This document shows positions 6,053 to 61,311 of a stretch of 64,000 nt of DNA, in pieces; the stretch's first letter is position 1; each line of letters starts with the position of its first letter. The notes beneath the pieces were generated by a model, which searched no databases, was not told where the DNA came from, and saw only the letters and a list, made by a program, of their open reading frames with translations. Location of the stretch: assembly GCA_038116945.1 (NCBI GenBank), contig JAYOEY010000011.1:14480-78479 (forward strand), written 5' to 3'. A program made the translations under genes and the position numbers. This DNA comes from Rhodospirillales bacterium. Its GTDB lineage: Bacteria; Pseudomonadota; Alphaproteobacteria; MPNO01; UBA2964.

Positions 6053-6076
6053 TTTGGTTGTGCCGCAGTTCGGAAA

Positions 6077-7654: not shown

Positions 7655-7911
7655 CTCATTACATGCCCGGCAGGGAAATCTGACGCGCCAAGGCGGCCCC
7701 GGCGCAGCGTCGGCGCGAGCGTTGACCCGCGGAAACCGAGTCTCTAAAATATGATTGATTAGTCAACAATTAGCTATCGAAGGTTTTGTCAGCGTTGGAA
7801 TTCTGCCAAAAATCTATATAGTCCGCGGTACATTTAGGCAAGCGAACGCGCCCGCTGGGAGGCGAAAGCCGGGGTCCGGAACGGGCGCCGGCGAATGGAG
7901 GAAGACAGGAA

Positions 7912-9603: not shown

Positions 9604-9605
9604 CC

Positions 9606-11033
9606 ATGTCGATCGATCTCACGGCCCGCATTCCGAACAACGTCGATCTGGGAGAGGACCGCCGCCTGCAGCGTGCGCTTGAAGGCTGGCAGCCCAGCTT
9701 TCTCGACTGGTGGAAGGATCTCGGACCCGAGGGCACGCTCGATTACGACGTCTATCTGCGTACCGCGATCAGCGTCGATGCCGACGGGTGGGCAAATTTC
9801 GGCTACGTCAAAATGCCCGAATACCGCTGGGGCATCTTTCTCGCGGAACCGGTCGAGGGACGAACCATCGCGTTCGGCGAAAACAGGGGACAGCCGGTCT
9901 GGAACGAGGTTCCCGGCGAGCATCGCTCGACGCTGCGCCGGCTGATCGTGACGCAGGGCGATACCGAGCCCGCCTCGGTCGAGCAGCAGCGCCTTCTCGG
10001 CCTGACCTGCCCGTCGCTTTACGATCTGCGCAACCTGTTCCAGGTGAACGTGGAAGAGGGGCGGCATCTGTGGGCGATGGTCTACCTGCTGCACGCCTAT
10101 TTCGGGCGCGACGGGCGCGAGGAAGCCGAGGCGATGCTGGAGCGCCATTCGGGCGATCCCGACAAGCCGCGCATTCTCGGCGCGTTCAACGAAAAGACGC
10201 CGGACTGGCTGGCCTATTTCATGTTCACCTACTTCACCGACCGCGACGGCAAGTACCAGCTCGGCTCGCTGGCCGAATCCGGCTTCGATCCGCTGGCGCG
10301 CACCTGCCGCTTCATGCTGACCGAGGAAGGCCACCACATGTTCATCGGCACGACCGGCATCCAGCGCGTCGTGACCCGGACGCTGGAGGTGATGAAGGAA
10401 ATCAAGTCGGAGGATCCCGACAAGGTGCGTGCGGCGGGCGCGATCGATCTGCCGACCATCCAGCGCTATCTCAACTTCCATTTCAGCGTGTCGCTCGACC
10501 TGTTCGGTCAGGAGCTCTCGACCAACGCGGCCAACTACTACACCGCAGGCCTGAAAGGCCGGTTCGAGGAAAGCAAGAACGAGGACGATCACGTTCTTTC
10601 CAACGGCACCTACAACGTGACGCTGCTGGAAAACAACGAGGTCCGCGAAACCACGCAGAACCAGCTGCTCGCTGTCAACGAACGGCTGCGCGACGATTAC
10701 ATCGCCGACTGCCAGCTCGGGGTGACCCGCTGGAGCAAGATCATCAAGAAGGCCGGGGTCGAATTCGAGCTGAAGCTGCCGCATCGCGGATTCAACCGCC
10801 ATATCGGCTCGTTCGCAGGGGCGAGGATTTCACCGCAGGGCAAGGTGCTGACCGAGGCCGAATGGACGCACCATTCCGCCGACTGGCTGCCGTCGACCGC
10901 CGACCGCGAATTCGTCCGTTCGCTGATGACGAAGCCGGTCACCGAGCCCGGCAAGTTCGCCGGCTGGGTCGCCCCTCCGGGACGCGGCATCGACGGCAAG
11001 CCGCTCGATTTCGAGTATGTGAAGTTCCACTGA
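9606..11033 (+). CDS. boxB: Benzoyl-CoA 2,3-epoxidase (oxygenase component) BoxB, di-iron enzyme
   Basis: 475 aa, the expected BoxB length; ferritin-like di-iron ligands (EEGRHLWAM, EEGHHMF); starts 3 nt after the boxC stop. Confidence 0.75.
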   Translation: MSIDLTARIPNNVDLGEDRRLQRALEGWQPSFLDWWKDLGPEGTLDYDVYLRTAISVDADGWANFGYVKMPEYRWGIFLAEPVEGRTIAFGENRGQPVWNEVPGEHRSTLRRLIVTQGDTEPASVEQQRLLGLTCPSLYDLRNLFQVNVEEGRHLWAMVYLLHAYFGRDGREEAEAMLERHSGDPDKPRILGAFNEKTPDWLAYFMFTYFTDRDGKYQLGSLAESGFDPLARTCRFMLTEEGHHMFIGTTGIQRVVTRTLEVMKEIKSEDPDKVRAAGAIDLPTIQRYLNFHFSVSLDLFGQELSTNAANYYTAGLKGRFEESKNEDDHVLSNGTYNVTLLENNEVRETTQNQLLAVNERLRDDYIADCQLGVTRWSKIIKKAGVEFELKLPHRGFNRHIGSFAGARISPQGKVLTEAEWTHHSADWLPSTADREFVRSLMTKPVTEPGKFAGWVAPPGRGIDGKPLDFEYVKFH

Positions 11034-11053
11034 TCCAGAGCGGATCGGAAACG

Positions 11054-11082
11054 AAAAGGGCGGCCTGGTGCCGCCCTTTTTC
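11054..11082. terminator. Bidirectional rho-independent terminator between boxB(+) and the araC-family gene(-)
   Basis: GGGCGGC-ctggt-GCCGCCC stem followed by TTTTT; A-run on the other side. Confidence 0.6.
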
Positions 11083-11110
11083 GTTGCCGCGGTTGGCTGG
11101 CGTCGGTTCC

Positions 11111-12235
11111 CTAGAGTGTTAAATGCCTGATCCAGTCTTCGTATCGACGATCGAGGCTGTTCGCATCTTCTCCGTCTCTTTCCAGCCGGGACCGGCCGTT
11201 TCGAACGTCTGTTGGCGATATCCCGAACCGTTTCCGGAACGCCCGGCTGAAGGCGGTATCGCTGGCATATCCGCAGCGCATGGCGATATCGAATACCGGC
11301 AGGTGAAAACGGTTTCTGTCTGCCAGCATGAACAGCGCCGACCGCAATCGTCGTTCCCGGATATAGCTTGCGATCCCGTCCTGGGATTCAAACATCCTGT
11401 AAAGCCTGGAACGCGAGATTCCGGCCTGGCGCGACACAAAGGCGACCGAAAGGTCGGGGCGCGACAGGTTCTGTTCGATGACCCGTTTTGCGACGGTGAT
11501 CTGGGCCAGTCGTATTCCCTCGCTCTGACCGGGACTGTCCCCGACCGCACCGTTGAGACAGGCCGCGACAAGGCCGGTGGTGGCAGGGCCAAGCTGCTGC
11601 GCCCGTTCCGCCGTCAGGTTATGTGAGCTCTTTTCAAGAGAAACCATATGATCTTTCAGAAGACCGGTCATCGGGTCCCCGGCGGACAGCACGCGGCCAT
11701 GTTGATCGTCTTCCGAACGCAGCAGCGGCGCGAGCTGGTCCCGGGGGACGATCAGGGACAGGTTCGTGAAATCGGAGGTTCTCGTGGTTACGTCGCGCGC
11801 CAGATCGTAAATGATGATGCTGCCTTCGGGACAGTCGATTTCGACATCGTCGATGCTCATCGTCTGGCCGCCCTCGAGGAAGAACTGGACCATGTAATGA
11901 TCCATGCCGTCCTGCCCGATGACCAGGGGCGTTCGCCGCCATTCCTGCGCGCGGGTGGTTGTTCTGGCGAGCATCAGGTTGCCGAACATCGCGGCATCGA
12001 CTTCTGCCAAAAACGGTCGGCCCCTGGCCGGGTCGAGAAGCTCCACGTCGAAGATGCAGGCGATGCTTTCGCGCCAGGCATCGAACCGTTCGGTTGCCGG
12101 CAGGTCCTCGACGGAGAAAACGGCGCGCGAAGCTCGTTCCGGGGCGTCCCGTCCCTCGTCGGACGTCATACCATCCCGCTTTCCGCAGTCGGGCCTTTTC
12201 GTTGCATTCGAGCCGTCTCCCGGCAGAAAAACCAT
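11111..12235 (-). CDS. AraC/XylS-family transcriptional regulator
   Basis: 374 aa; C-terminal double HTH (LSVAFVSRQAGISRSRLYRMF ... DTAFSRAFRKRFGISPTD) with an N-terminal ligand-binding domain. Confidence 0.8.
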   Translation of the reverse strand: MVFLPGDGSNATKRPDCGKRDGMTSDEGRDAPERASRAVFSVEDLPATERFDAWRESIACIFDVELLDPARGRPFLAEVDAAMFGNLMLARTTTRAQEWRRTPLVIGQDGMDHYMVQFFLEGGQTMSIDDVEIDCPEGSIIIYDLARDVTTRTSDFTNLSLIVPRDQLAPLLRSEDDQHGRVLSAGDPMTGLLKDHMVSLEKSSHNLTAERAQQLGPATTGLVAACLNGAVGDSPGQSEGIRLAQITVAKRVIEQNLSRPDLSVAFVSRQAGISRSRLYRMFESQDGIASYIRERRLRSALFMLADRNRFHLPVFDIAMRCGYASDTAFSRAFRKRFGISPTDVRNGRSRLERDGEDANSLDRRYEDWIRHLTL

Positions 12236-46502: not shown

Positions 46503-47591
46503 TCAGCGGGCGGGGCGTCCTCGCCTTTCCCTCGGCGAAGTTTCTCCCTCGACCTTGCGCCCTCTGACCATGATCGCTTCCCGCGCCATTGTGGCCACTT
46601 CCGGCGATACCTTCATCATTTCGCCCACGACCTTCTGAAGGTCTTCGCCCTTCATCGGGGCGACATCGAGCTTGCGTCTGTTCGCTTCTTCCTTGAAGGC
46701 CGGGCTGTAGGCCATCTTCTCGAAGGCGGCGCGCAGGGAGGCCGAAATATGAGCCGGCGTCTTCGGCGGCACCGTAAGCGACCGGCCCACCGCGCCCAGC
46801 GACGCCATGAACCCGACAATCTGCTTCTGTTCCGGCGTGACGGCCAGATCGGTCAGCATGGGCAGGTTCTGAAGCGCGGGGTCCTTGTTGACGCCCAGCT
46901 GAAGCACCGGCTTTGCGTAACCGGTTTCGAACCATTTGCCGCGCGTCGCGGTCCAGGACGCCCACGTCAGCGAGGCACCGTCGGTTTCCTTCTGCTCCAT
47001 CGCCAGCATGGCTTTCTGGGAGCCCTTGTAGCCCTGGATGATCTTGATCTTGGTCCCGAAGACGCCGTTCAGCATCGCCGGCAGCAGGAAGGTCTGCGAA
47101 CCGGTGCCGGTCGATCCGGCGATGACCGGCGTTTTCTGGAGGTCGGCGAGCGTGTTGATGTTCTTGTCGGAGCGGAAGACGAGGACCGAGTTGGTCTGTA
47201 CCGCGTTGCCGAGATAGTAGAACTGGTTCGCCTTGTATCGGGTTGTCTTGGGCTCGAGAATGTTCGAAATCACCACCGTGTCGGGCGGCATGAACAGGTT
47301 GAGGCCGGTTTTCGCCGCGACGTTAAAGGCGTAGTTGCTCGCCTTGATGCCGCCTGCGCCCGGCATGTACTGGACAACGATGGTCGGATGGCCGGGGATA
47401 AACGGCTTCAGGTGGTGAGCCATGATCTGGGAATAGAGACCGTACGTCCCGCCGGCATCGAAGCCGACGGTAATGGTCACTTTCTTGTCCTTGAACGCGC
47501 GCTCGACCGCAGCGTCATTGGCGAGAGCGGGCAGGGCAAGGCTTGTCGCGAGGACGAGTGCGCCTGCAGCGCAACTGGTCTTGCTTTTCAT
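46503..47591 (-). CDS. TctC/Bug-like periplasmic substrate-binding protein
   Basis: Signal peptide; VVQYMPGAGG, QGYKGSQKAMLAMEQKETDG. Confidence 0.5.
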   Translation of the reverse strand: MKSKTSCAAGALVLATSLALPALANDAAVERAFKDKKVTITVGFDAGGTYGLYSQIMAHHLKPFIPGHPTIVVQYMPGAGGIKASNYAFNVAAKTGLNLFMPPDTVVISNILEPKTTRYKANQFYYLGNAVQTNSVLVFRSDKNINTLADLQKTPVIAGSTGTGSQTFLLPAMLNGVFGTKIKIIQGYKGSQKAMLAMEQKETDGASLTWASWTATRGKWFETGYAKPVLQLGVNKDPALQNLPMLTDLAVTPEQKQIVGFMASLGAVGRSLTVPPKTPAHISASLRAAFEKMAYSPAFKEEANRRKLDVAPMKGEDLQKVVGEMMKVSPEVATMAREAIMVRGRKVEGETSPRERRGRPAR

Positions 47592-47786
47592 AATGTTCCT
47601 CCAAGGGATAGGTCACGGGTTGACCGGCAATTGCCGGGAGGTGCGTCCGGCGATCGTTCGCCGGACGAATAACCCTTCTTCGGAGGCTGGGGACCGGTTG
47701 GCCGGTTTTGGGCATCCCGCCATTTCTGTGTCGGCGTTCAGGGCGGCGTGTATTTCGGCATTCCCAACGCGCTTTCAAGTGGGCGG

Positions 47787-47820
47787 CGAAAAAAAAGGCC
47801 GGGGAAATCCCCGGCCTTTC
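47787..47820 (-). terminator. Rho-independent terminator (minus strand) after the 47839-48891 gene
   Basis: GGCCGGGG-aaat-CCCCGGCC followed on the minus strand by TTTTTTTTT. Confidence 0.6.
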
Positions 47821-47838
47821 TGTAAGACGCCTGCGCGC

Positions 47839-48891
47839 CTATTTCTTCATCGTCGGCTTCTTGCCGAAGATATACTTGGTCGCCTTGGCGACGGCCGACG
47901 GCGACATGGTCGCGATCGCATCGGCAAGCGTCTTCTGCAGCTTGGCGCCGGAAATCGGCTGGACCGGAAGCTTGCGCTTCTGAGCATCCGACCTGAAGGC
48001 CGGATCGGCGACCGTGGCCGCGAAAGAGGCGCGCAACGGCTCGACCAGCCCCTGCGGGACGCCCGGCGGATAGGCCAGACCGCGGCCGATCACGGAGGCG
48101 GTCGACAGCATGGCCGCCGCTGCCCTGTCGTCGTCGGTCTTCGCCAGCTCATGCAGCAGAGGGACGTTCGGAAGGTCGGGTTCCTTCTCGAAGCCCGTCT
48201 GAAGAAGCATCAGGGCGAAATCCTTGTCGGTGCCCTTGAACCACTGCGGACGGTTGGCCTTCCAGGAGACCCAGCTGTTCGTCATGCCGAACGTTTCGCC
48301 CTGCTCGACCGAGAGGGAGGTGCCCGCGGAGCCCTTGTAGCCCGTGACGATCTTGAACTTGGTCTTGAGAATGCCGTTCATCATCGCCGGCAGGAGATAG
48401 GTCGGCGAGCCGGTGCCGGTCGAGGCAACGATGACTTCCTTCTTCTGAAGGTCCTCGATTCCTTTAACGCCGGTATCGCGGCGCACGATCATCACCTGGT
48501 TCGCGCCGAACACGGTACCGAGCCAGTGGAACTTCGTGGTCTTGTACTTGACCTTCTTGGGCCGCAGCATTTCCGACACCACCGACATTTCCGGCGGCAT
48601 CAGAATGTTGAACCCGTTCTTCGGCATGACAACGTAGGCGTAGTTCGCGGCCTTCAGCCCGCCTGCGCCCGGCATGTGCTGCACGATGACGCTGGGTTTG
48701 CCCGGAATATGCTTGCCGATGTGGTTCGACAGAAGCAGCGCCGTCTGACCGTACGTGCCGCCCGCGCCGTAACCGACCAGAATGGTGACGGTACGGTCCT
48801 TGAACACGTTTGCAACCGATTGCGCAGTCGCCGGCGCCGCCATGGCAGCCGCCGATGCGATGGCAGCAAACGAAATAAGAGTGCGTTTCAT
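47839..48891 (-). CDS. TctC/Bug-like periplasmic substrate-binding protein, paralogue
   Basis: Start taken at MKRTLISFAAIASAAAMAAPATA signal; VIVQHMPGAGG, TGYKGSAGTSLSVEQGE. Confidence 0.5.
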   Translation of the reverse strand: MKRTLISFAAIASAAAMAAPATAQSVANVFKDRTVTILVGYGAGGTYGQTALLLSNHIGKHIPGKPSVIVQHMPGAGGLKAANYAYVVMPKNGFNILMPPEMSVVSEMLRPKKVKYKTTKFHWLGTVFGANQVMIVRRDTGVKGIEDLQKKEVIVASTGTGSPTYLLPAMMNGILKTKFKIVTGYKGSAGTSLSVEQGETFGMTNSWVSWKANRPQWFKGTDKDFALMLLQTGFEKEPDLPNVPLLHELAKTDDDRAAAAMLSTASVIGRGLAYPPGVPQGLVEPLRASFAATVADPAFRSDAQKRKLPVQPISGAKLQKTLADAIATMSPSAVAKATKYIFGKKPTMKK

Positions 48892-49160
48892 GAAAAGCTC
48901 CCTGTCTATTGGGTTAAACACCCGCCGACCTCCCATAAACCGGCGAGGACGCGCTATATTGCGTGGATTCCTCGCGTAAGAAAAGGGAAAAGGATTTCTC
49001 TGCCGGAACGTCCCCGCGGCGGACCGAGTTGTGCCCTCGCCGGCTCAGGTGTAGATTCTCCTCAACCATAAGAAAAAAACGGCTTTTCCTGTTCTGGTGC
49101 GCAGGTTCGGCTGTCCGTTGCGGTGGTCGAATGAAACCTAACGAAAAGAGGGAGGATCAC

Positions 49161-50111
49161 ATGAAAATTCTATCGACGGCACTGGCCCTTGGGGCATTAG
49201 CACTTCCGACCGCGGCGCTTGCGGCGGGCGGGGCCGATCTCAATTTCGGTTCGGGCCGCCAGGGCGGCTCGCAATATCCGGTTACGGTCGCGATCGGACA
49301 GGTTCTCGAGAAACTGCCGGAATTCGGCAAGATTTCGCTTCAGCCGGGCGGGTCGATCGGCAATATCATCCGCGTCGATACGGGCAAGTCCGACCTGGCG
49401 ATTTCGATGTCGATCAGCCTGCGCGACGGTCGGGCCGGCAACGCACCCTTCAAGAAGAAGACCAGCAACGCGGTGCAGCTCATGACGCTTCACGCCTTCA
49501 ACGTTATGGCGCTGGTGCCGGCCGATTCCCCGATCAAGAGCTTCCGGGATTTCGCCGGCAAGAAGGTCAATTTCGCGCCCAAGGGCTATTCGATCACCCA
49601 TGTCGGATTCCGCATCCTCGAAAAGATGGGAATCAAGGACAAGGTCAAGGTCGGCTATCTGCGGATCGGCGGCGCCGTTCAGGCCTTCAAGGACGGGCAT
49701 GTCGACGGCATTCTCTACGCGCCGTCCAACCGCTACGGACCGATCATCAACCTGGCCCAGACCCGCAAGATCAGGGCGGTCCAGCTCGATGAAAAGATCA
49801 TGGACGACCTGATCGCGGAAAACCCGAGCTTCTTCAAGACGACCTGGCCGAAATCGAAGGGGATCTACAAGAATCTGGTCAACTCGGTCACAAACCTCGC
49901 CTATCCCAACATCATCCTCGCCAACAAGGACAGGATCTCGGATTCGCAGGCCTATGCCATCGTGAAGGCGGTCGCCGAGAATTTCGACAAGGTCCGGGTC
50001 GGCGATCCGTCGCTCAACGACTTCCAGCCAAAGGAAATGGCGCTGCAGGTCGGAAGCCCGTTTCATCCCGGCGCGCTCCGCTACTACAAGGAACGCGGCT
50101 GGATAAAATAA
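49161..50111 (+). CDS. TRAP transporter solute receptor, TAXI family
   Basis: 316 aa from ATG 49161 (RBS GGAGG); signal peptide; GGSQYPVTVAIGQVL and C-terminal HPGALRYYKERG typical of TAXI. Confidence 0.7.
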   Translation: MKILSTALALGALALPTAALAAGGADLNFGSGRQGGSQYPVTVAIGQVLEKLPEFGKISLQPGGSIGNIIRVDTGKSDLAISMSISLRDGRAGNAPFKKKTSNAVQLMTLHAFNVMALVPADSPIKSFRDFAGKKVNFAPKGYSITHVGFRILEKMGIKDKVKVGYLRIGGAVQAFKDGHVDGILYAPSNRYGPIINLAQTRKIRAVQLDEKIMDDLIAENPSFFKTTWPKSKGIYKNLVNSVTNLAYPNIILANKDRISDSQAYAIVKAVAENFDKVRVGDPSLNDFQPKEMALQVGSPFHPGALRYYKERGWIK

Positions 50112-50183
50112 CGCCCGCCTGACGAAGCAGGGAACGGCGCTCCGCGCCGGTCCCTGCCGTTACCCATTGTCTAATGTCGGGAC

Positions 50184-52082
50184 GTGGCTTTCATGGACGT
50201 TAAAGCGGTTGTCATTCGCTACATCGCCATCGCGATGGCGCTGTTCCATCTATACACGTCGGCGACCGGCGTGCTCGATGCCGTGCTGCAGCGGAGCGCG
50301 CACCTTGCTTTCACGGCGACGCTGATCCTGCTGATCTACGCGCATCCCCGTTTCGGCGCGGGCCGGGCAGGCGCGCTGGCTTCCGGTATTTTTTCCGCCG
50401 TTGTGATCGTTGCGTCGCTCGCGCCGCTGGGATTTCTTCTGTTCAACCACGAATATTTCACGGCGGGGCGTATTCAGTTCGTCACCGACGTCACGCCGGT
50501 CGAGCTTACGCTCGGCATCTGCATGATCGTCACCGTGCTCGAGCTGTGCCGGCGCGTCACCGGTCCGGTGCTGCCGCTGATCACGGCGGGTTTCGTCGTC
50601 TTTCCCTTTATTCCGGGGTTGCCCGGCGTCCTGCAGCATGCCGGGTACAGCATCGCCGAGGTGGTCGAAATCCAGTACCTGACACTCGCCGGCATTTTCG
50701 GCGTGCCGGTCGCGGCGTCCGCCAATTTCGTGATCATGTTCATCATTTTCGGCGCATTTCTTGAGCGCAGCGGGCTCGGCGGGTTCATCATCGATTTCAC
50801 CACCGGGCTGGTCGGCCGGTACCGCGGAGGCCCTGCCAAGGTCGCGGTAATGGCGAGCGCCATGACCGGCACCATTTCGGGCAGCGCCATGGCCAACGTC
50901 CTGACAACGGGCACGCTGACCATCCCGTTGATGCGGCGGATCGGGTATCCGCCCTTCATGGCCGGTGCAATCGAGGCGGCGGCGTCGACGGGCGGCGCGC
51001 TGATGCCGCCGATCATGGGCAATGTCGCCTTTATCATGGCGCAGTTTTCTGCCGTCCCATACGCGCTGATCGCGCTCTACGGGCTGATTCCGGCGGTTCT
51101 CTATTTCTTCGGCGTGTTCTGTACCGTTCACTGGGCGGCGGTGCGCTATGGCGCCGGCGGGCTGCCGCCCGACGAACTGCCTGCCTGGATGGAAAGCCTG
51201 AAGGAACGCGGCCATCTTCTTCTGCCGCTGATCCTGCTGGTCACGCTGATGATCAAGGATTTCTCGCCGCAGTTTGCCGTGGTGTACAGCATCGCTGCGG
51301 TAATCGTGGTCTCGTGGTTCCGGAAATCGACCCGCATGAATTTCCGGGCGATCCTCGATGCGCTTGAAAACGGCGCCAAAGGGGCGGTTCTGGTGGCGGT
51401 CGCCACGGCCTGCGCGGGCGTTATCGTCGGGGTCTTCGAACTGACGACGGTCGGCGTAAAGCTTGCCCAGTCGGGCAACGAGCTGGCCGGCAGCCTGTTC
51501 GTCGGGTTGCTGATCACCATGGCGGTGTCGATCATTCTGGGCATGGGCGTGCCGCCGTCGGTGAGCTATATCGCCCAGATCGCCGTGACCATTCCCATGC
51601 TGCAGATCTTTCTCAAGGCGGAGGGCGTGGACCCGGAAGTTGCCAAGGTGGCGACCCATTTCTTCGTGATGTATTTCGCGACCATGGCGGTGCTGACGCC
51701 GCCCGATGCGCTTGCCTCGATCGCGGCGGCGGGCGTGGCGCAGAGTCCGTTTCTCAAGACGGCGATTCATGCGACGCGAACGGCATTCGTCGCGTTCATC
51801 GTGCCGTTCATGTTCGTCTATCGGCCGGCGCTTCTGACTTTCGGCACATGGGACGAAATCCTGATCGCCGTGTTTCTGGCGCTGGCTGGCATCTTCGTCC
51901 TGTCGGCAGCCCTGGAAGGCTACTGGTTCCGCAAGATGAGCGTCTTCGAACGCCTTGCGGGCGTGGCGTCCGGTTTCGCCCTGGTGGTGCCTGACGCCGC
52001 CTGGGACATCGCCGGGCTGTGCGGGTTAGGGCTTCTCCTGTTATGGCAGTGGAAGCCGTGGCAGCGCGGTAACGCTGCCTGA
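50184..52082 (+). CDS. TRAP transporter fused permease (4TM+12TM, DctQM-like) partner of the TAXI receptor
   Basis: 632 aa, highly hydrophobic throughout; immediately downstream of the TAXI gene. Confidence 0.7.
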   Translation: MAFMDVKAVVIRYIAIAMALFHLYTSATGVLDAVLQRSAHLAFTATLILLIYAHPRFGAGRAGALASGIFSAVVIVASLAPLGFLLFNHEYFTAGRIQFVTDVTPVELTLGICMIVTVLELCRRVTGPVLPLITAGFVVFPFIPGLPGVLQHAGYSIAEVVEIQYLTLAGIFGVPVAASANFVIMFIIFGAFLERSGLGGFIIDFTTGLVGRYRGGPAKVAVMASAMTGTISGSAMANVLTTGTLTIPLMRRIGYPPFMAGAIEAAASTGGALMPPIMGNVAFIMAQFSAVPYALIALYGLIPAVLYFFGVFCTVHWAAVRYGAGGLPPDELPAWMESLKERGHLLLPLILLVTLMIKDFSPQFAVVYSIAAVIVVSWFRKSTRMNFRAILDALENGAKGAVLVAVATACAGVIVGVFELTTVGVKLAQSGNELAGSLFVGLLITMAVSIILGMGVPPSVSYIAQIAVTIPMLQIFLKAEGVDPEVAKVATHFFVMYFATMAVLTPPDALASIAAAGVAQSPFLKTAIHATRTAFVAFIVPFMFVYRPALLTFGTWDEILIAVFLALAGIFVLSAALEGYWFRKMSVFERLAGVASGFALVVPDAAWDIAGLCGLGLLLLWQWKPWQRGNAA

Positions 52083-52095
52083 CCCAGACGTCTGC

Positions 52096-53145
52096 TCAGT
52101 TCAGCCCGTAAAGTCGCTTCGCGTTGTCGTCGAGAATCCTGTCGGCCGATTTTTTCGGAATCTTGCCGTCGCTGCGGAGCCGTCGCAGCGCCTCGATTTC
52201 GGTTGAAGTGTCGTTGTGGCCGTAATCGGTGCCGACGACGATGTTGTTGTCGCCCACTGAGTCCAGAATATAGTCGAGATCGTCGGTCACCTGGCAGGCG
52301 ACATAAATATTGTTGTCGCCCAGTGGATCGCTGCCGAGGTCGCGTCCCATGCGGCTCAGCCGCAGATTGAGGTCGTTGATCGCGTATGGCACCCACTGCG
52401 CGCTGAGTTCGACGAAGCCCCAGCGGACTTTGGGGAATTTCTCCGGAATGCTGTTCCACAGCAGGTCGTGAAACGCGCCGACGCCTGAAAGCTTGAATCG
52501 GTTGAAGCCCGGATCGGTACGGTAGGCCTCGTGAATCGTGAAGCTGGCGATGCCCGAATGCAGACAGATCGGCAGGTCGAGTTCCCCCGCCATGTCATAG
52601 AACGGGAAGAAGTACGGGTCGGATGCCAGCCTCTCGGCTTCGAGCGCGCGGACGAAGATGCCGCAGGCGCCATTCTCCTTGCCGAATTCGAGTTCCTCCC
52701 GGACCTTGTCCATCGACAGCAGGGGAGGGCAGACCACCCAGCGGAGTTCCTCCGGCGCGGCCTTGTTGATGTCGGCCAGCCAGCGGTTGTAGCCGGTGCA
52801 CAGCGCGTAATCGACTTCCGGATTTGTCGTCAGAGGCCGCAGGAAGAGCGTCGGGAACAGGACCTGCACGTCGATTTCAAGCTCTTTCATGTGATCGAGC
52901 CGGGCCTGAATGTCGGTCATCTCCCGCGATTCCATCGACGTGTCGAGGCCGACATTGAATTGCTTGTTGTGGATCCGCCCGTCGACCACCCAGTATTCCC
53001 GCAGCACGTTGCCGCTGGAGCCGTACTGGGTCTCGCCGGTCTGCTGGTTCACCACCATGGGCGTGTGGCGTTTGAGATCCGGAGGGATGTGTTCCCACGT
53101 GCGTGGGGTTTCCAGGACGTGTGCGTCGGCGTCGATCGTCGGCAT
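52096..53145 (-). CDS. Amidohydrolase-2 family metal-dependent hydrolase/decarboxylase (ACMSD-like)
   Basis: 349 aa; N-terminal DADAHV and C-terminal VGTDYGHND. Confidence 0.65.
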   Translation of the reverse strand: MPTIDADAHVLETPRTWEHIPPDLKRHTPMVVNQQTGETQYGSSGNVLREYWVVDGRIHNKQFNVGLDTSMESREMTDIQARLDHMKELEIDVQVLFPTLFLRPLTTNPEVDYALCTGYNRWLADINKAAPEELRWVVCPPLLSMDKVREELEFGKENGACGIFVRALEAERLASDPYFFPFYDMAGELDLPICLHSGIASFTIHEAYRTDPGFNRFKLSGVGAFHDLLWNSIPEKFPKVRWGFVELSAQWVPYAINDLNLRLSRMGRDLGSDPLGDNNIYVACQVTDDLDYILDSVGDNNIVVGTDYGHNDTSTEIEALRRLRSDGKIPKKSADRILDDNAKRLYGLN

Positions 53146-54653: not shown

Positions 54654-56888
54654 GTGTCAGATGCTCCGGGCGTCGTTGCTCTGAAAAAACGCCTTGCCGA
54701 GGCTGAATCCGCGCTCGCGGAGCTGCAACGGGAAAAGGCCGTCAGCGAAGAGCGTCTCGAGCAGGCGCTGGCGGACCTGGCAGCGCGGACAAATACCGAG
54801 CAGGCCCTGCTCGAAAGCGAAGCGCGGCTGAGCGCGATCGTCAACAACAGTCCGTCGCTGATATATCTCAAGGACACGGATTCACGCCTGTTGATGATCA
54901 ACGACGCCTACGCGCGTCATTACGGCGTCGAAAAGGACGCCGCGATCGGCCGCAGGGGAGAGGCATGGGTGGATCCCGAAGCCTACGCCGCGATGTTGGA
55001 AAACGACCGGGCTGTCATCAGCAGCGGCGAGCCGAGCCGGTTCGAGTACACGCTGAGGCCAAACGATGGCCCGCCACGATACATGAGTTCGATAAAGTTT
55101 CCGGTCAGGGACAAGTCCGGAGCCGTCGTCGGAGTGGGCGGCCATAGTGTCGACGTGACCGAACTGAAACAGGCAAGGCAGCTCGACGAACAAAAATCGT
55201 TACTGTTGCAGACGACGCTCGACCATCTTCGCGAGGGCATAACGGTCTACGATTCAACGCTGAGGCTGACAGCGTTCAACCAGCGCTTCGTGGAACTCTT
55301 CGGGTATCCGGCAGGCTTTATCCGGCTTGGAATGCATTACGGCGAAATCGCCCGTTTCAATGCGGAGGCGGGACATTACGGCCCAGGCGAGATCGAGGAG
55401 CTTGCCCGTATCCGTGTGGAACGCGCCCAGACCGGGGCGCCCCGAAAACTGGAGCGAACCGGGGACGACGGCAAGACCATCGTCGTCATGAGAACGCCTC
55501 TTTCAGATGGCGGGTTCGTTTCCACGTTCATGGATGTGACCGAGCGCAAGCAGGCGGAAATCGCCCGGGAAGAGGCCAGAAAGGCTGCCGAGCACGCGGC
55601 GGAGTCAGCGCGTGAGGCCAACGAGGCGAAGAGCAAATTCCTCGCCAATATGAGTCACGAGCTTCGGACTCCGATGAACGGCATTCTCGGCATGGTCGAA
55701 CTGCTGGCGGACAGCAATCTGACCCAGGAGCAGCGGGAAAAAGTCGATATCATAAAGTTTTCCGGAAAATCGCTTCTCAGCCTGCTTAACGACATTCTCG
55801 ATCTTTCGAAGATCGAGGCCGGTCGATTCGAGATGGATGTCTGTGAATTTTCGATCTCCGAGATGCTCGCGTCGCTCGATAGGCTGTGGTCGCCTCAACT
55901 GCAGCAAAAAGGGGTGGCGTTCGCGATTCGCAACGATCTGACCGGCCCGAACCTGTTCCGAAGCGACGAAAGCCGGATCCGTCAGGTTCTCGTCAACCTG
56001 ATCGGCAATGCTGCCAAGTTTACGTCTCGCGGATGCATCGACGTCTGCGTTTCCCGCGAGGCCGGTCCGAGAAACGAGCGGTTGCTGCGGTTCGAAGTCC
56101 GCGACACCGGAATCGGCATCAAACCGGACGAGATGGAACGGCTTTTCCAGCCTTTCAACCAGGCGGACCCGTCGATCACGCGGGATTTCGGGGGCACCGG
56201 TCTGGGGCTGTCGATCAGCCGGAACCTGGTCGAGATGCTGGGCGGCGAGATCGGGGTCGAGAGTGAATTCGGCAGAGGGTCGACCTTCTGGTTCACCATC
56301 GCCGTCGACGAGGTCGAGGTGGCGGCGCCGCTGCCCGAGCCCGTCGACGGAAATTCTCCGGTCGCCGGGAGCAGTACCCCCTGCCGCCCGCTGAAGATAC
56401 TGATCGCGGAAGACAACAAGATCAATCAGCGCGTCACGACGCTCATGCTGCGATCTCTCGATTGCACGGTCGAGATCGTGGAGGACGGCGAAGGCGCCGT
56501 TGCTGCTGCTGCCCGCTCCGATTACGACATTATCCTGATGGATGTGCAGATGCCGAATATGGACGGCGTCACGGCTACCGGAAAAATCCGGGCCTTGCCG
56601 CCGCCCGCATGCGATGTCCCGATAATAGCCATGACGGCGAACGCCATGATCGGCGACAGGGAATCCTACCTGCAGAACGGCATGTCCGATTACGTTCCCA
56701 AGCCGATAGATCGCGAGCTCCTTATGGAAACCATCGGCAAATGGACAGGCGGCACGAAGGTGGAGCGTGTCGATATTCTCCCTGCAACGGCGGAGATCGA
56801 CAGGCATGATGCCGACATGCATGTCTCGGAGTTCGAGGATCTTATGGATCGCTTCGACCCCGGGCGGACTTCGTCCGGAGGCGGCTGA
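54654..56888 (+). CDS. Hybrid sensor histidine kinase / response regulator, cytoplasmic (coiled coil, PAS, PAS, HisKA, HATPase, REC)
   Basis: GTG start 54654; no TM segment; H-box ANMSHELRTPMNGILG; G-boxes; REC with ILIAEDNKINQ...ILMDVQMPNMDG. Confidence 0.8.
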   Translation: MSDAPGVVALKKRLAEAESALAELQREKAVSEERLEQALADLAARTNTEQALLESEARLSAIVNNSPSLIYLKDTDSRLLMINDAYARHYGVEKDAAIGRRGEAWVDPEAYAAMLENDRAVISSGEPSRFEYTLRPNDGPPRYMSSIKFPVRDKSGAVVGVGGHSVDVTELKQARQLDEQKSLLLQTTLDHLREGITVYDSTLRLTAFNQRFVELFGYPAGFIRLGMHYGEIARFNAEAGHYGPGEIEELARIRVERAQTGAPRKLERTGDDGKTIVVMRTPLSDGGFVSTFMDVTERKQAEIAREEARKAAEHAAESAREANEAKSKFLANMSHELRTPMNGILGMVELLADSNLTQEQREKVDIIKFSGKSLLSLLNDILDLSKIEAGRFEMDVCEFSISEMLASLDRLWSPQLQQKGVAFAIRNDLTGPNLFRSDESRIRQVLVNLIGNAAKFTSRGCIDVCVSREAGPRNERLLRFEVRDTGIGIKPDEMERLFQPFNQADPSITRDFGGTGLGLSISRNLVEMLGGEIGVESEFGRGSTFWFTIAVDEVEVAAPLPEPVDGNSPVAGSSTPCRPLKILIAEDNKINQRVTTLMLRSLDCTVEIVEDGEGAVAAAARSDYDIILMDVQMPNMDGVTATGKIRALPPPACDVPIIAMTANAMIGDRESYLQNGMSDYVPKPIDRELLMETIGKWTGGTKVERVDILPATAEIDRHDADMHVSEFEDLMDRFDPGRTSSGGG

Positions 56889-57165
56889 CGCGACCGGCTG
56901 GCCCGGCGCTCGACCGGACGCCGGTTTCCCCTTTCCCTTGTTTTGCAGACGATCCCGTGAAACAAACGGGTGCGAACTGACCGGTTCGGTGAACATGAGA
57001 TGTCCGACATGATCGTTGTTGTCTCCTTTGGATGGCGCCCGGGACGGGCCAGCGTCCGCCGCCCGCTCGACAGGTCTTGCATGGTCGCGATTGCCGGTTT
57101 AAATGCCAGCGGATCGGCGACGGAGAAAACCGGTCCGGCGGCAGACCGGACCTGACGGGCGAGCG

Positions 57166-58509
57166 ATGGCGGGAAACGGCGTAAAACGCGCTCTGGCGAT
57201 GAAGAATCTCCGGTCTCAGATGATGATCGTGGTTCCGGCGCTGCTGGTTGTGATCGCAGGGTTCGTTCTGGCGTATCAGTTTGTCGGCCCCGCCCCACCC
57301 GATCGCGTTCTGATGGCGACCGGATCCGACAGCGGCGCCTATCACGCTTTCGGGAAACTCTATGCCGAGCGGTTCCGCAAGGAAGGCATCGAACTGGCGC
57401 TCAGAACGACGGCCGGCTCATCGGAAAACCTGTCCCTGATTGGCGATCCGGCGAAAAACGTGCCGGTCGCCTTCGTCCAGGGAGGCGTGGCGGTGGCGGA
57501 CGATTTTCCCGATCTGCGTTCGCTCGGCAGCGTCTATTTCGAGCCTTTATGGGTATTCGTCAGGGGAAGCGAACCCCTCCGCCAGCTGACCGGTCTGGCC
57601 GGGCGAAGAATTGCGGTTGGCGGCGAGGGGAGCGGCACCCGGACGCTCGCGCTGAAACTGCTGGCCGAGAACGGGATTGCCGCGGGGAAGGCAACACTTC
57701 TGGAGATAGGCGGACCCGAAGCGGCGGCTGCGCTGATCGATGGCTCTGTCGACGCGGCGTTCTTCATCACCTCCGCCAACTCGCGGACGGTCCGCGATCT
57801 GGTTGGTGCGGACGGCATTCACCTGACCAGTTTCGAGCGGGCGGAGGCGTATCTCAGGCGTCACCGCTACCTGTCCGCGGTAACGCTGCCGCGGGGGGGT
57901 ATCGATCTGGCGCGCGACCTGCCGCGCCGGGATGTCGTGCTGCTTGCGCCGACCGCGACGGTCGTGGCCAATCCCGATCTTCATCCCGCCCTGATCGATC
58001 TTTTCCTGACGACCATGCGCGACGCGCACCGCGCCGGCGGATTGCTCGAGACGCCGGGAGAATTTCCAACGGCAAAGTTCGTCACCTTTCCCCTCGAGCC
58101 GGCGGCGGACCGTTTCTACGAGCGGGGTCCTCCTTTTCTGCAGCGATATCTGCCGTTCTGGGCGGCCAATCTGGTGGATCGTCTGAAGATCATGATCCTG
58201 CCGCTGCTGACTCTTCTCTACCCGCTCTTCAAGGTATTGCCGCCCATGTATAACTGGCGGATGAAGACGCGGGTGAATCGCTGGTATCGCGATCTGCAGG
58301 CTCTTGACGACAGGGTGCGGTCGAATGCGATCTCGAATGCCGACGCGAAGGCTGAAATCGATCGTATCGAGCGCGCAGTCGAGCGGGTCACTGTGCCGGC
58401 CGGATTCGCATCGAGCGCATATACGCTCCGCCTTCACATCGATTTTCTGCGCCACCGTATCGAGGACGGCGGCGGCGAGGCCGGACCGGCGGACTCGGCT
58501 TCTGTCTGA
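57166..58509 (+). CDS. TAXI-family solute-binding domain protein with an N-terminal TM anchor, a C-terminal TM helix and a cytoplasmic coiled-coil tail
   Basis: N-terminal LRSQMMIVVPALLVVIAGFVL; TAXI-like core (MATGSDSGAYHAFG...); second TM LKIMILPLLTLLYPLF then about 100 aa of charged/coiled tail. Confidence 0.5.
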   Translation: MAGNGVKRALAMKNLRSQMMIVVPALLVVIAGFVLAYQFVGPAPPDRVLMATGSDSGAYHAFGKLYAERFRKEGIELALRTTAGSSENLSLIGDPAKNVPVAFVQGGVAVADDFPDLRSLGSVYFEPLWVFVRGSEPLRQLTGLAGRRIAVGGEGSGTRTLALKLLAENGIAAGKATLLEIGGPEAAAALIDGSVDAAFFITSANSRTVRDLVGADGIHLTSFERAEAYLRRHRYLSAVTLPRGGIDLARDLPRRDVVLLAPTATVVANPDLHPALIDLFLTTMRDAHRAGGLLETPGEFPTAKFVTFPLEPAADRFYERGPPFLQRYLPFWAANLVDRLKIMILPLLTLLYPLFKVLPPMYNWRMKTRVNRWYRDLQALDDRVRSNAISNADAKAEIDRIERAVERVTVPAGFASSAYTLRLHIDFLRHRIEDGGGEAGPADSASV

Positions 58510-58861: not shown

Positions 58862-60151
58862 CTAGACCGTCGTCCTGATTTTGCCGGGAGCCGCCCTGAA
58901 GTCTTCCTGGCAGGCCTCGGCGTAATTCAGTTCGGGATCGAGGACCGTTGCAATCGACCTCACCTTCATGTGCTCCGGGGCACGGCCCGGCGGCATGATG
59001 CCCTTATCTTTCAGGTCGAGCGCCGCGCGCCGCAGGCGGTTCCGGGTCAGCACGATGCCGTAATCGCACTGCACCAGGTTTTCCCGCGACCGGTCGACGA
59101 TCGGACCCATGGATTCCTGAAGGCTGCCGTCCTGCATCCCGAATCCCGCGATACCGGAATAGGATTCGCCACGCTTTTGCGCCTCCCGGTCCATAAGGTA
59201 GTCGTTGCTCTTGTTCTGGACCGGAATGTAGGTGCCCGGAATAACGGCCACGTGCACGCCCTTGCCGTCGAGGCAGGCCTGACGTTCTACGTCCGTGAGG
59301 GGACGGTTGGGGTGGTAGTCGTAGCTCCAGGTCCAGCAGTTCTCGTCGTTGATGGGAACCCAGAAATGCCCGTGTTGCGGATGATCCGCGCGCGGCGGGA
59401 TCATGGTGAAGCACGGCATGACCCACTGGGTGACGCGCCAGTAATACTTGCCTTCTTCCGCGTTGCGGCGGGCGCCGATGTAAAGACCGCCCTCGGATTC
59501 GGCGACTTCGAAATAGGGCTTCAAATCGCCGAGATTGTAATTGTTGGCCTTGGCGCCCTGAAACAGCGGGTCGCGCTCCAGCTCCTGGGAATGCAGGAAC
59601 GACACATGGCTCGAGTCGATTCCGCCTTCAAGCGCCTGAAGCCAGTTGCATTCCTGGAGGCGCTTGGTCGAGACCGTCTGTTCGGGCGCGACCGTGCAGA
59701 ACTCCCATGCGGGTTCCGGCGGGGTATTCGCGGGATCGCCCATATAGGTCCACAGCACGTCCCCGACCTTGATCAGCGGATAGGCCTGAAGCTTGACCTC
59801 CTCGCGGAACTTGGCGTTGTCCGGTTCCGACGGAATCTCGACGCAGTTTCCTTCCACGTCGAATTTCCAGCCGTGGTAGGGGCAGCGCAGCCCGCAATCC
59901 TCGTTGCGGCCGAACCACAGCGAAACGCGGCGGTGCGCGCAGAATTCCTCGATCAGACCGTACCGGCCTTCCGAGTCGCGGAACGCAATCATCTTTTCGC
60001 CCAGCAGTTCGCACCGAACCGGCGGGCAGTCGTTCTCGGGCAGCTCTTCGGCCAGCAGGGCCGGCAGCCAGTACTGACGGAACAGCTCGCCCATCGGGGT
60101 CCCCTTGTCCGTCTGTGTCAGCAGATCGTTCACTTCCTTGCGAAGCGACAT
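58862..60151 (-). CDS. Rieske non-haem iron aromatic-ring-hydroxylating oxygenase alpha subunit (phthalate-dioxygenase-like)
   Basis: 429 aa from ATG 60151; Rieske CAHRRVSLWFGRNEDCGLRCPYHGW; mononuclear-iron catalytic domain. Confidence 0.7.
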   Translation of the reverse strand: MSLRKEVNDLLTQTDKGTPMGELFRQYWLPALLAEELPENDCPPVRCELLGEKMIAFRDSEGRYGLIEEFCAHRRVSLWFGRNEDCGLRCPYHGWKFDVEGNCVEIPSEPDNAKFREEVKLQAYPLIKVGDVLWTYMGDPANTPPEPAWEFCTVAPEQTVSTKRLQECNWLQALEGGIDSSHVSFLHSQELERDPLFQGAKANNYNLGDLKPYFEVAESEGGLYIGARRNAEEGKYYWRVTQWVMPCFTMIPPRADHPQHGHFWVPINDENCWTWSYDYHPNRPLTDVERQACLDGKGVHVAVIPGTYIPVQNKSNDYLMDREAQKRGESYSGIAGFGMQDGSLQESMGPIVDRSRENLVQCDYGIVLTRNRLRRAALDLKDKGIMPPGRAPEHMKVRSIATVLDPELNYAEACQEDFRAAPGKIRTTV

Positions 60152-60243
60152 GGTTCCTCTCCTCCTCTTTTGCGCATCGCCTCTCGCCGGGCCGCGCAGA
60201 AATCTCGGGTCCGGGCGCGAAATCTTCCGAAACAAACCCTCGC

Positions 60244-60268
60244 CATTGCCAAAATCTGAGCGGCAATG
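60244..60268. promoter_or_regulatory. 7-bp perfect inverted repeat in the divergent oxygenase/hydrolase promoter
   Basis: CATTGCC-aaaatctgagc-GGCAATG. Confidence 0.3.
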
Positions 60269-60456
60269 CAATTCCATGCCGGTGGCACGGTTATGTCCAG
60301 AAGCGATGCGTCGCCGGGGACCGCCAATCGGCAGAAGAACTAAAGGAACCTGCCTTTTGCGTCAATGCCGGAGGGATATTCCGGCGTGCTTGCCGCGAGC
60401 GGCCGGAAACACCATTATCCTGCGCGTTCGGACAGGCAGAAAACGGGGCCGAAAGG

Positions 60457-61311
60457 ATGCCGACAGCAGACATCGACGGGATCGAAACGCGTTATGAGGT
60501 GATGGGCGACGGTCCGGCCATTTTAATGTACTCGCCGGGCGGATTCGATGCGCGGATCGAGCAATGGTCGGACCTCGGCGTTTACAAACGCATCCGGCTG
60601 CTCGACTACCTGCCGGAAAGATATCGCTGCATCCTGTTCGACCGGCGCGAGAACGGGCAATCCGGCGGCCGCGTCGAGCGAATTACCTGGGACCATTACG
60701 TGCGGCAGGGAGCCGGTCTGCTGGACGCGCTGGGCGTCGAAAAGGCTCATGTCATGGGCGGCTGCATGGGATGCTGTCCGGTCTCGGCGTTCGGCGCAGC
60801 GTTGCCCGGCCGCACGCTTTCAATGGTGCATTACTGGCCGGTCGGCGGCGCCAAATACCGGATAAGTAGCCACCAGCGTTTTGCCCGGCATTTGGCGTTT
60901 GTCGAGGAAAACGGGCTGCAAGCGGTCGTCGATCTGGTGCGGAGCCACGACAAAAACTTTTCTTCCGATCCGCGCGGTGGCCCATGGGGCCAGCCGATCC
61001 GCAATTCAGATGCCTTTGCCGACGCCTACGCCGCGCTGGATCGTTCGAAATACCTGCTGACCGTTACCGCCATGGTACGCGGGCTGATGGACCGGGACAC
61101 TTCGCCGGGTGCGGAGCCGGAGGAGCTGATGCGGCTCGACATTCCGGCCCTGATCGTGCCCGGCAACGATCCGTTCCATGCAACGTCGGCGGCGCGCTAC
61201 CTGCATGAATGTCTCGAAGGCTCCCAATACTGGGACATGCCGGTGGACGATCAGACCGAGGACAACGCGCCGGGGCGGATTCTTGATTTTCTGGACGGAA
61301 TTTCCGCCTGA
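60457..61311 (+). CDS. alpha/beta-hydrolase fold protein
   Basis: 284 aa from ATG 60457; nucleophile-elbow-like HVMGGCMG. Confidence 0.6.
   Translation: MPTADIDGIETRYEVMGDGPAILMYSPGGFDARIEQWSDLGVYKRIRLLDYLPERYRCILFDRRENGQSGGRVERITWDHYVRQGAGLLDALGVEKAHVMGGCMGCCPVSAFGAALPGRTLSMVHYWPVGGAKYRISSHQRFARHLAFVEENGLQAVVDLVRSHDKNFSSDPRGGPWGQPIRNSDAFADAYAALDRSKYLLTVTAMVRGLMDRDTSPGAEPEELMRLDIPALIVPGNDPFHATSAARYLHECLEGSQYWDMPVDDQTEDNAPGRILDFLDGISA

Follow-up and report, generated by a model that had tools for sequence, protein, structure and literature searches.

Within the 64,000-nucleotide stretch of the Rhodospirillales bacterium contig JAYOEY010000011.1 analysed here (the window), the gene at positions 57166–58509 of the forward strand encodes a 447-residue protein in which a TAXI-type solute-binding domain is predicted to sit between two transmembrane (TM) helices, with a cytoplasmic three-helix bundle at its C-terminal end. 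The gene is a member of a large and widely distributed family of inner-membrane proteins whose architecture is fixed and whose genes are solitary. We propose, with a probability of about one half, that the protein works on its own as a transmembrane receptor for amino acids, acting on a partner encoded at an unlinked site. On this reading it would be neither a subunit of a transporter nor an accessory of the hybrid histidine kinase encoded next to it.

The reading frame of the TAXI-like gene is open from position 57103; the start at 57166 is the choice of public gene callers, matches the alignments of homologues, and thereby sets the gap to the upstream kinase gene at 277 bp. TM segments were judged by the maximum Kyte–Doolittle (KD) hydropathy in a 19-residue window, and the structure was modelled with AlphaFold2 (AF2; 19 homologues as input, mean predicted local distance difference test (pLDDT) score of 81). 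The parts of the protein are as follows:

57166–58509, + strand: the TM–TAXI–TM–three-helix-bundle protein, 447 residues (Pfam, NCBIfam, homologues, AF2 and Foldseek)
57220–57288, + strand: TM1, residues ~19–41, KD 2.64
57304–58125, + strand: predicted periplasmic TAXI-type Venus-flytrap domain, residues 47–320 (Pfam, NCBIfam, AF2, Foldseek and profile alignments to PDB entries)
58126–58176, + strand: juxtamembrane segment before TM2, GPPFLQRYLPFWAANLVDR, residues 321–337 (family conservation, invariant columns)
58177–58248, + strand: TM2, proline-rich, LKIMILPLLTLLYPLFKVLPPMY, residues ~338–361, KD 1.86 (family median 2.01)
58249–58464, + strand: predicted cytoplasmic three-helix bundle, residues 362–433

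The Pfam family NMT1_3 (PF16868, cut-off 27 bits) matches the protein with 69.8 bits, over profile positions 1–244 of 289 only, and the TIGR02122 match of 74.9 bits lies under the cut-off of that model, 84.35 bits. Residues 47–320 of the AF2 model mostly have pLDDT values of 82–96. The top seven Foldseek matches are all TAXI proteins (E 1e-16 to 1e-18, target-normalised TM-score 0.70–0.76), the best structures being VcGluP (9IBO and 8S4J), an Ehrlichia protein (4DDD) and Thermus TT1099 (1US4), with TM-scores of 0.72–0.76 at 18–22% identity. The core of the protein is, as modelled, a divergent TAXI fold; it has in common with the TAXI solute-binding proteins the two-lobed arrangement seen in VcGluP and TT1099, and the motifs GxxGxY, GS..N, Q, E-P and GSGT, and it differs from them in its low identity and in falling below the TIGR02122 cut-off.

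TM1 has a basic stretch on its N-terminal (predicted cytoplasmic) side, and its C-terminal half, GF..AYQFV.PAPP, is conserved in the family. Among 81 aligned family members, lysine and arginine together amount to 3.79 per 15 residues before TM1 and 1.32 after it, and to 1.05 before TM2 and 5.31 after it. From this inside-positive charge pattern, both termini are predicted to lie inside (N-in/C-in) and the TAXI domain, between the two TM helices, to lie in the periplasm. The tail that follows comprises 86 residues (362–447). In the full-length and tail-only AF2 models alike, TM2 continues into three helices, residues 361–385, 391–406 and 412–433, over which no Pfam or NCBIfam model matches. The conserved residues of the bundle are R372, Y374, L377, D381, E402, V405, P411, Y419, L421, R422, H424 and I425; the invariant His424 was considered as an Hpt-like phosphoacceptor and dropped, there being neither an Hpt match nor other support for it.

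A preliminary description of this locus had placed a 447-residue gene 277 bp downstream of the kinase gene on the same strand, and its coordinates and gene content are right. It had also recognised a TAXI-type binding core, for which Foldseek and AF2 give the two-lobed fold, and an N-terminal TM anchor with a second TM helix after the binding domain, with which hydropathy and charge bias agree. The tail, which it had described as a cytoplasmic coiled coil of about 100 residues, keeps its predicted cytoplasmic location, but is 86 residues long and is modelled as a compact three-helix bundle.

Conservation, measured as the mean fraction of sequences with the commonest residue in each column of the 81-member alignment, is distributed unevenly along the protein. 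The segment preceding TM2 is the most conserved stretch of the whole protein (0.85), followed by TM2 (0.75), whereas the binding domain and tail helices 1 and 3 reach 0.61 and 0.61–0.65, respectively. Within the flytrap domain, Y59, S85, Q105, E126 and G155-S-G-T-R159 are conserved throughout the family. The paper reporting the VcGluP structure names the residues that hold L-glutamate, among which Y45, S75, Q93 and E125 hold the amino and alpha-carboxyl groups, and its mutagenesis marks the tyrosine and the glutamine as critical (PMC11574862). Mapped by a profile alignment to 8S4J at ~20% identity, with the numbering checked against that paper, Y45 corresponds to Y59 (kept in 76 of the 81 family members), S75 to S85 (73), Q93 to Q105 (78), E125 to E126 (77) and G156 to G157 (77), so that the glutamate-contacting tyrosine, serine, glutamine and glutamate of VcGluP are present in the 447-residue protein as well. 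Because these four contact side chains are kept across the family, the flytrap domain is predicted to bind a small alpha-amino acid, probably a glutamate-like one. A canonical TAXI protein encoded elsewhere in the window has Gln, Ser, Met and Phe at the first four VcGluP contact positions, which indicates that the Tyr/Ser/Gln/Glu set is not universal among TAXI proteins.

A similarity search with the 447-residue protein returned 5360 matches at E ≤ 1e-3, and the best 120 of these are nearly all 420–476 residues long, aligned over 88–100% of their length, and all at least 53% identical. Relatives occur in at least 556 species genomes in a scan with one genome per species, and their record names are generic ('TAXI family TRAP transporter solute-binding subunit'). 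We fetched 80 loci, mostly as ±10 kb around the TAXI-like gene. They come from Alpha-, Beta- and Gammaproteobacteria, Desulfobacterales, Methylomirabilota, Nitrospinaceae and Planctomycetota, with Burkholderiales represented and with Sedimenticola, Motiliproteus and Halopseudomonas among the Gammaproteobacteria. Some members are carried on the large replicons of Caballeronia, Burkholderia, Cupriavidus metallidurans CH34 and Roseovarius. A member of 451 residues with the same TM–TAXI–TM–tail layout is found in Pseudomonas aeruginosa (locus L093, 6992–8347; CP109682.1), where it adjoins yejK. That record is labelled as a 425-kb plasmid, yet contains chromosomal-looking genes (rlmF, yejK and a CesT-family type III chaperone). 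The tag PA3848, suggested by gene order as the PAO1 counterpart of this member, was set aside, because none of three papers that mention it describes it in a way that bears out the identity, and one of them lists it as cytoplasmic.

The layout is as constant as the family is wide. A profile of the C-terminal module (residues 318–447), searched against 1.84 billion cluster representatives (50% identity), matched 2107 of them at E ≤ 1e-3 and 1182 at E ≤ 1e-10. Wherever a match among the 150 listed is full-length, the module lies at or near the C terminus of a protein of ~430–480 residues, and the longer module-containing proteins that were scanned all carry NMT1_3 upstream of it. One family member, P0177 (634 residues), has an additional C-terminal DUF697 domain (residues 493–602) after the three-helix tail, a single case that is a possible clue to a partner. 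P0255, with an HMGL-like N terminus, and P0098, with three stretches of NMT1_3, appear to be chimeras of gene calling or assembly and were set aside as clues from fusion.

The genes around family members share no such constancy. The hybrid kinase of the window finds a tblastn match within 10 kb in 7 of the 80 loci, in none of which (0 of the 7) it lies upstream and on the same strand as it does in the window, and the permease of the window finds one within 10 kb in 2. When the open reading frames (ORFs) of 81 loci are clustered, the most widespread flanking family occurs in at most 14 loci and flanking genes follow synteny at the level of clades; the larger clusters consist of ORFs overlapping the TAXI-like gene itself. 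For a census of Pfam domains, dereplication at 70% identity left 39 usable loci, and the 25 most frequent families were tallied for each set of positions. Among the 78 immediate neighbours, the commonest family is PMSR, with four genes. The 140 genes two to three positions away include HisKA twice, both in L002 and on the opposite strand, i.e., in 1 of the 39 loci, and neither DctM nor DctQ is among the 25 most frequent families within ±3 genes of these loci. PMSR, the DksA-type zinc finger (3 of the 140) and DUF3108 (two alphaproteobacterial loci) were considered as functional hints and rejected as too sparse or clade-bound. Annotated records from Pseudomonas, Burkholderia, Caballeronia and Roseovarius agree with the absence of a conserved neighbour. 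The family is essentially solitary, linked to neither kinases nor TRAP permeases. The preliminary description had held that the protein is not an ordinary transporter receptor, and the rarity of a nearby permease supports this; the link to kinases on which it had built its proposal comes, in this survey, close to being no link at all.

The kinase next to the TAXI-like gene is nevertheless what that proposal assigned as its signalling partner, and its history can be followed through related loci. The features of this part of the window are:

52096–53145, − strand: Amidohydro_2 gene, the anchor of clade synteny, which adjoins the TAXI-like gene in L081
53227–54324, − strand: metalloprotease-like gene, divergent from the kinase gene, with a weak HExxH-type M10-like motif
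54654–56888, + strand: soluble hybrid histidine kinase, an ORF of 744 residues with a GTG start
54840–55169, + strand: PAS_4 of the kinase, residues 63–172 (Pfam)
55218–55559, + strand: PAS_7 of the kinase, residues 189–302 (Pfam)
55626–55823, + strand: HisKA of the kinase, residues 325–390 (Pfam, E 1.5e-22)
55965–56306, + strand: HATPase_c of the kinase, residues 438–551 (Pfam, E 4e-29)
56397–56735, + strand: REC (Response_reg) of the kinase, residues 582–694 (Pfam, E 5.4e-26)
56889–57165, + strand: intergenic region of 277 bp, holding a motif of ~40 nucleotides

With an H-box HisKA domain, a HATPase_c domain and a C-terminal receiver, together with the motifs SHELRTPMN and DVQMP, the kinase has the composition of a hybrid histidine kinase. 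Its N-terminal 55 residues look heptad-like by eye, with a coiled coil at residues ~8–55 (+ strand), and it has no TM segment because its KD maximum in the 19-residue window is only 1.10. Pfam and hydropathy thus agree with the preliminary description of a TM-free kinase made of a coiled coil, two PAS domains, HisKA, HATPase and REC. No Pfam match to an Hpt domain is found in the kinase, no other REC or kinase core is found in the 64-kb window (tblastn, E < 1e-3), and the window holds no partner receiver or Hpt protein for it. Orthologues of the kinase are rare, amounting to four clusters at 53–63% identity over at least 89% of its length.

The stable neighbour in this clade is the Amidohydro_2 gene, which is 71–93% identical across L081, L084, L088, L002, L003 and L008. 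What lies between it and the TAXI-like gene varies from locus to locus:

L081 (TAXI-like protein 74% identical): nothing, with ~190 bp between the two genes
L084 (76%): a remnant of the metalloprotease-like gene, then DUF350, DUF1190, GSP_synth, AdoMet_dc and DUF3326
L002 and L003 (66–67%): unrelated kinases on the opposite strand, two of them of SBP_bac_3 type in L002
Window: the metalloprotease-like gene and the hybrid kinase
L088 (TAXI-like gene not seen): the metalloprotease-like gene and the kinase (63% identical), on a contig that ends 173 bp past the kinase

In L090, which encodes the closest homologue of the TAXI-like protein (82% identical), a partial kinase orthologue lies directly upstream on the same strand and is 61% identical over the last 240 residues. 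This kinase occupies the upstream position only in the window, L090 and probably L088. The kinase and the metalloprotease-like gene are a narrow-clade insertion between the amidohydrolase and the TAXI-like gene, and the kinase diverges much faster (61–63% identity) than the TAXI-like protein (82%). The tail of the TAXI-like protein, by comparison, is conserved in hundreds of genomes without the window kinase. By eye, the tails of the window protein and of P0005 look ~80% identical, and at L081, the locus of P0005, no kinase gene lies within 10 kb of the TAXI-like gene, so the window kinase is apparently not the source of the constraint on the tail. Signalling to the adjacent kinase, as put forward in the preliminary description, is at odds with the absence of this adjacency in relatives that are still 74–76% identical, and the pairing is probably a local accident.

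The same slot has been occupied in other ways. In L002 (3453–9309, − strand), the interval from the amidohydrolase to the family member holds two large sensor kinases, of which the one that was scanned (821 residues) has a periplasmic SBP_bac_3 domain; signalling genes have been gained repeatedly in this slot in different lineages. The metalloprotease-like protein of the window has 365 residues, and its sole signal is a set of weak Peptidase_M10/M66/M43 matches at residues ~100–133. It travels with the kinase (74% identical in L088, and a remnant of 135 residues in L084) and appears to have been inserted jointly with it.

DNA alignments show that the ~40-nucleotide motif of the intergenic region (~56925–56975, + strand) recurs in L090 (~770–815) and in L084 (~8255–8300), with the consensus CTTGTC.C..TTGT....G...C.A.CCC.TG.AA.A. 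Because it is kept in L084 despite a different upstream gene, the motif suggests that the TAXI-like gene has a 5' control region of its own, in which the motif may be a promoter or an operator. Scans of the + strand of the gap gave no significant match to a terminator or a sigma-70 promoter, and a short stem after the kinase stop codon is no more stable than shuffled sequence (z = 0.41); co-transcription of the two genes is therefore neither shown nor excluded.

Farther upstream, the window contains a canonical TAXI–TRAP system on the same strand, ~5 kb from the TAXI-like gene and separated from it by two opposite-strand genes and the kinase:

48963–50111, + strand: canonical TAXI binding protein, with a full NMT1_3 match
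50184–52082, + strand: fused DctQM permease, with a weak DUF3394 match

DUF3394 is the 'claw' domain described for VcGluQM (PMC11574862). The preliminary description was correct that no TRAP permease adjoins the TAXI-like gene, but left this complete system unmentioned. The system (48963–52082) is absent from the same position in L081 and L088 and looks like a local insertion.

Next to this system, the ORF at 47473–49071 (+ strand) has no Pfam match and overlaps 47839–48936 on the − strand. Its tblastn matches fall on stretches of minus-strand genes in L081, L084 and L088, which in L081 are a TctC (Bug-type) gene and an unannotated gene; it was rejected as a gene, being probably a high-GC shadow of the minus-strand gene, and 47839–48936 may encode a divergent TctC-like binding protein. 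Directly downstream of the TAXI-like gene, a Rieske and LigXa_C-type oxygenase is encoded on the opposite strand (58862–60277, − strand), followed by an alpha/beta hydrolase (60115–61311). The neighbourhood looks like a catabolic region of variable content, with an amidohydrolase here, and hydantoinase and TctC genes in relatives.

The architecture departs from that of characterised relatives in several respects. Standard TAXI and other TRAP binding proteins consist of two lobes and a hinge only (PMC12344293, 2025). They are soluble or lipid-anchored, whereas the domain described here is bounded by two TM helices and extended by a predicted cytoplasmic bundle, so that the plan of a free or singly anchored two-lobed protein gives way to one with two TM helices and an 86-residue tail. 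TAXI binding proteins are likewise linked to a permease (a fused DctQM), in contrast to the present family, in which the nearest permease of the window is 5 kb away and a permease match is found in 2 of the 80 loci. Membrane-anchored TAXI binding proteins have been described (Roden et al. 2023, as cited in PMC12344293), and these, together with BP0403 (TAXI-GltS), an elongated dimeric lipoprotein, resemble the family as membrane-held TAXI proteins with non-standard additions; BP0403, like the family, has no adjoining TRAP permease. They differ from it, as far as that account goes, in having a single N-terminal anchor or a lipid, no cytoplasmic part, and genes beside the transporter. Receptors with two TM helices, such as the SBP_bac_3 sensor kinases (two of which occur in L002), share with the family the N-in orientation, the periplasmic flytrap domain, the second TM helix and a cytoplasmic portion, but carry HisKA/HATPase, MCP or GGDEF output, where the family has only a bundle of ~70 residues that matches no domain family. 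The GlnH/GlnX/PknG relay (PMC8050422), in which a non-enzymatic membrane transducer feeds a soluble kinase, embodies the idea of the preliminary description. There, the binding protein, transducer and kinase are separate and their gene linkage is conserved; here, by contrast, one polypeptide holds both the binding domain and the TM helices, and linkage to a kinase is not conserved. We found no paper describing a TM–TAXI–TM–bundle architecture in the searchable literature, which is incomplete, so that it may be described elsewhere; to this extent the preliminary description, which knew of no characterised sensory TAXI protein of this kind, still stands.

As a receptor, the protein would bind a small alpha-amino acid, probably a glutamate-like one, in its flytrap domain. 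When the domain closes upon the ligand, the pre-TM2 helix and TM2 would transmit the change to the bundle in the cytoplasm, which would in turn act on a partner whose gene lies at another site of the genome. A signal through TM2 is to be expected because each end of the domain is joined to a membrane helix and because the pre-TM2 segment and TM2 are the best conserved parts of the protein. This double tie, the conservation of these two segments above that of the binding domain, and the conserved cytoplasmic module together fit a receptor better than a passive tether. Several points weigh against this reading. The evidence assembled here bears on architecture and genomic context, and the survey of neighbours pointed to no partner. 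The tail has no recognised output domain (HisKA/HATPase, MCP, GGDEF/EAL, cyclase or Ser/Thr kinase), and a fold search with the tail by itself returned generic helical bundles only (BAG, designed three-helix bundles, SPX and PhoU). The assignment of the ligand rests on an alignment at ~20% identity. Both membrane-anchored TAXI proteins and TAXI proteins serving non-TRAP transporters have precedent (PMC12344293). Finally, a TAXI–TRAP system lies within a few kb of the family member in three alphaproteobacterial loci, namely the window, L020 and L018. In L018, a weak permease-like tblastn match is found 1 kb downstream. In L020, from a metagenome-assembled genome of Kiloniellaceae, the genes form a tight, operon-like array on one strand (5597–12181, + strand) in the order TAXI binding protein, DctQM permease, TPR protein (8565–9107), an ORF of 233 residues, the family member and another ORF, with several stops and starts overlapping; no other of the 80 loci shows an operon-like link to a TRAP system.

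These last points lead to the main rival, which we consider unlikely, that the protein is a binding protein, anchored twice in the membrane, which serves a transporter whose gene lies elsewhere, of the TAXI-type DctQM or a GltS-like kind, with TM2 and the tail docking to that transporter or regulating it. A TAXI fold with an intact ligand pocket suits such a role, and the literature provides anchored TAXI proteins, orphan TRAP binding proteins and a TAXI protein that serves GltS (PMC12344293). The canonical system 5 kb upstream in the window and the head-to-tail arrangement of TAXI–TRAP genes, TPR protein and family member in L020 point the same way, but the two systems are not orthologous to each other (37% and 25% identity), and that of the window is missing from its position in L081 and L088. 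Most TRAP binding-protein genes share an operon with their permease (PMC12344293), whereas a permease is found within 10 kb of the present family in just 2 of the 80 loci, with DctM and DctQ outside the 25 most frequent neighbouring families of the 39 dereplicated ones. Moreover, a plain tether needs neither a bundle conserved across phyla nor a TM2 conserved above the binding domain.

Much less probable still is the relay of the preliminary description, in which a periplasmic ligand signal would pass through the tail to the N-terminal coiled coil of the kinase. The two genes lie on the same strand 277 bp apart, the same kinase is found directly upstream in the closest relative (L090) and in the same syntenic slot in L088, and the kinase has neither a TM sensor of its own nor a partner regulator in the 64-kb window. 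Against this, relatives at 74–76% identity lack the adjacency, as do the other 80 loci. The kinase has very few orthologues next to the large TAXI family, and it diverges much faster (61–63%) than the TAXI-like protein (82%). The ~80% likeness (by eye) of the tail to that of P0005, at a locus that is kinase-free within 10 kb, tells against the relay as well, and the upstream motif shared with L084, where the upstream gene is another one, hints at independent transcription. The least probable reading, which is pure speculation, is a homo-oligomer in which pairs of TM1 and TM2 would form a ligand-gated pore or some other membrane machine, as a prokaryotic counterpart of receptors in which each subunit has a clamshell domain above a pair of membrane helices. 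Sequence conservation in TM1 and TM2 far exceeds the needs of an anchor, the binding domain is held by the membrane at either end, and the nearest folds bind glutamate, one having been deposited as a 'putative GluR0 ligand binding core'; TM2, however, is almost wholly hydrophobic and proline-rich, with no polar pattern of a pore lining and no P-loop. We therefore keep the stand-alone receptor as our preferred reading.

TAXI proteins are the least studied branch of the TRAP systems, and recent papers treat them as two-lobed proteins, either soluble or with a single anchor, that work for a neighbouring permease. The family described here departs from this picture in its two TM helices, its cytoplasmic domain and the lack of a linked transporter, and would thus extend the known uses of the TAXI fold. 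The annotation 'TAXI family TRAP transporter solute-binding subunit', carried by all members, probably overstates what is known of them, and the kinase and sensor genes of the window should not be counted as a functional unit. Culturable hosts, including Cupriavidus metallidurans CH34, Burkholderia, Caballeronia and an isolate of P. aeruginosa, should open the question to experiment. It is possible, if somewhat doubtful, that the family, which ranges from Alphaproteobacteria as far as Methylomirabilota and Planctomycetota, represents a new class of stand-alone amino-acid receptor, in which a uniquely conserved juxtamembrane helix and TM2 would connect the TAXI flytrap domain to a novel three-helix output module acting on an unlinked, probably universal partner. 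Were the receptor reading true, the cytoplasmic bundle would be a new output module for bacterial signal transduction.

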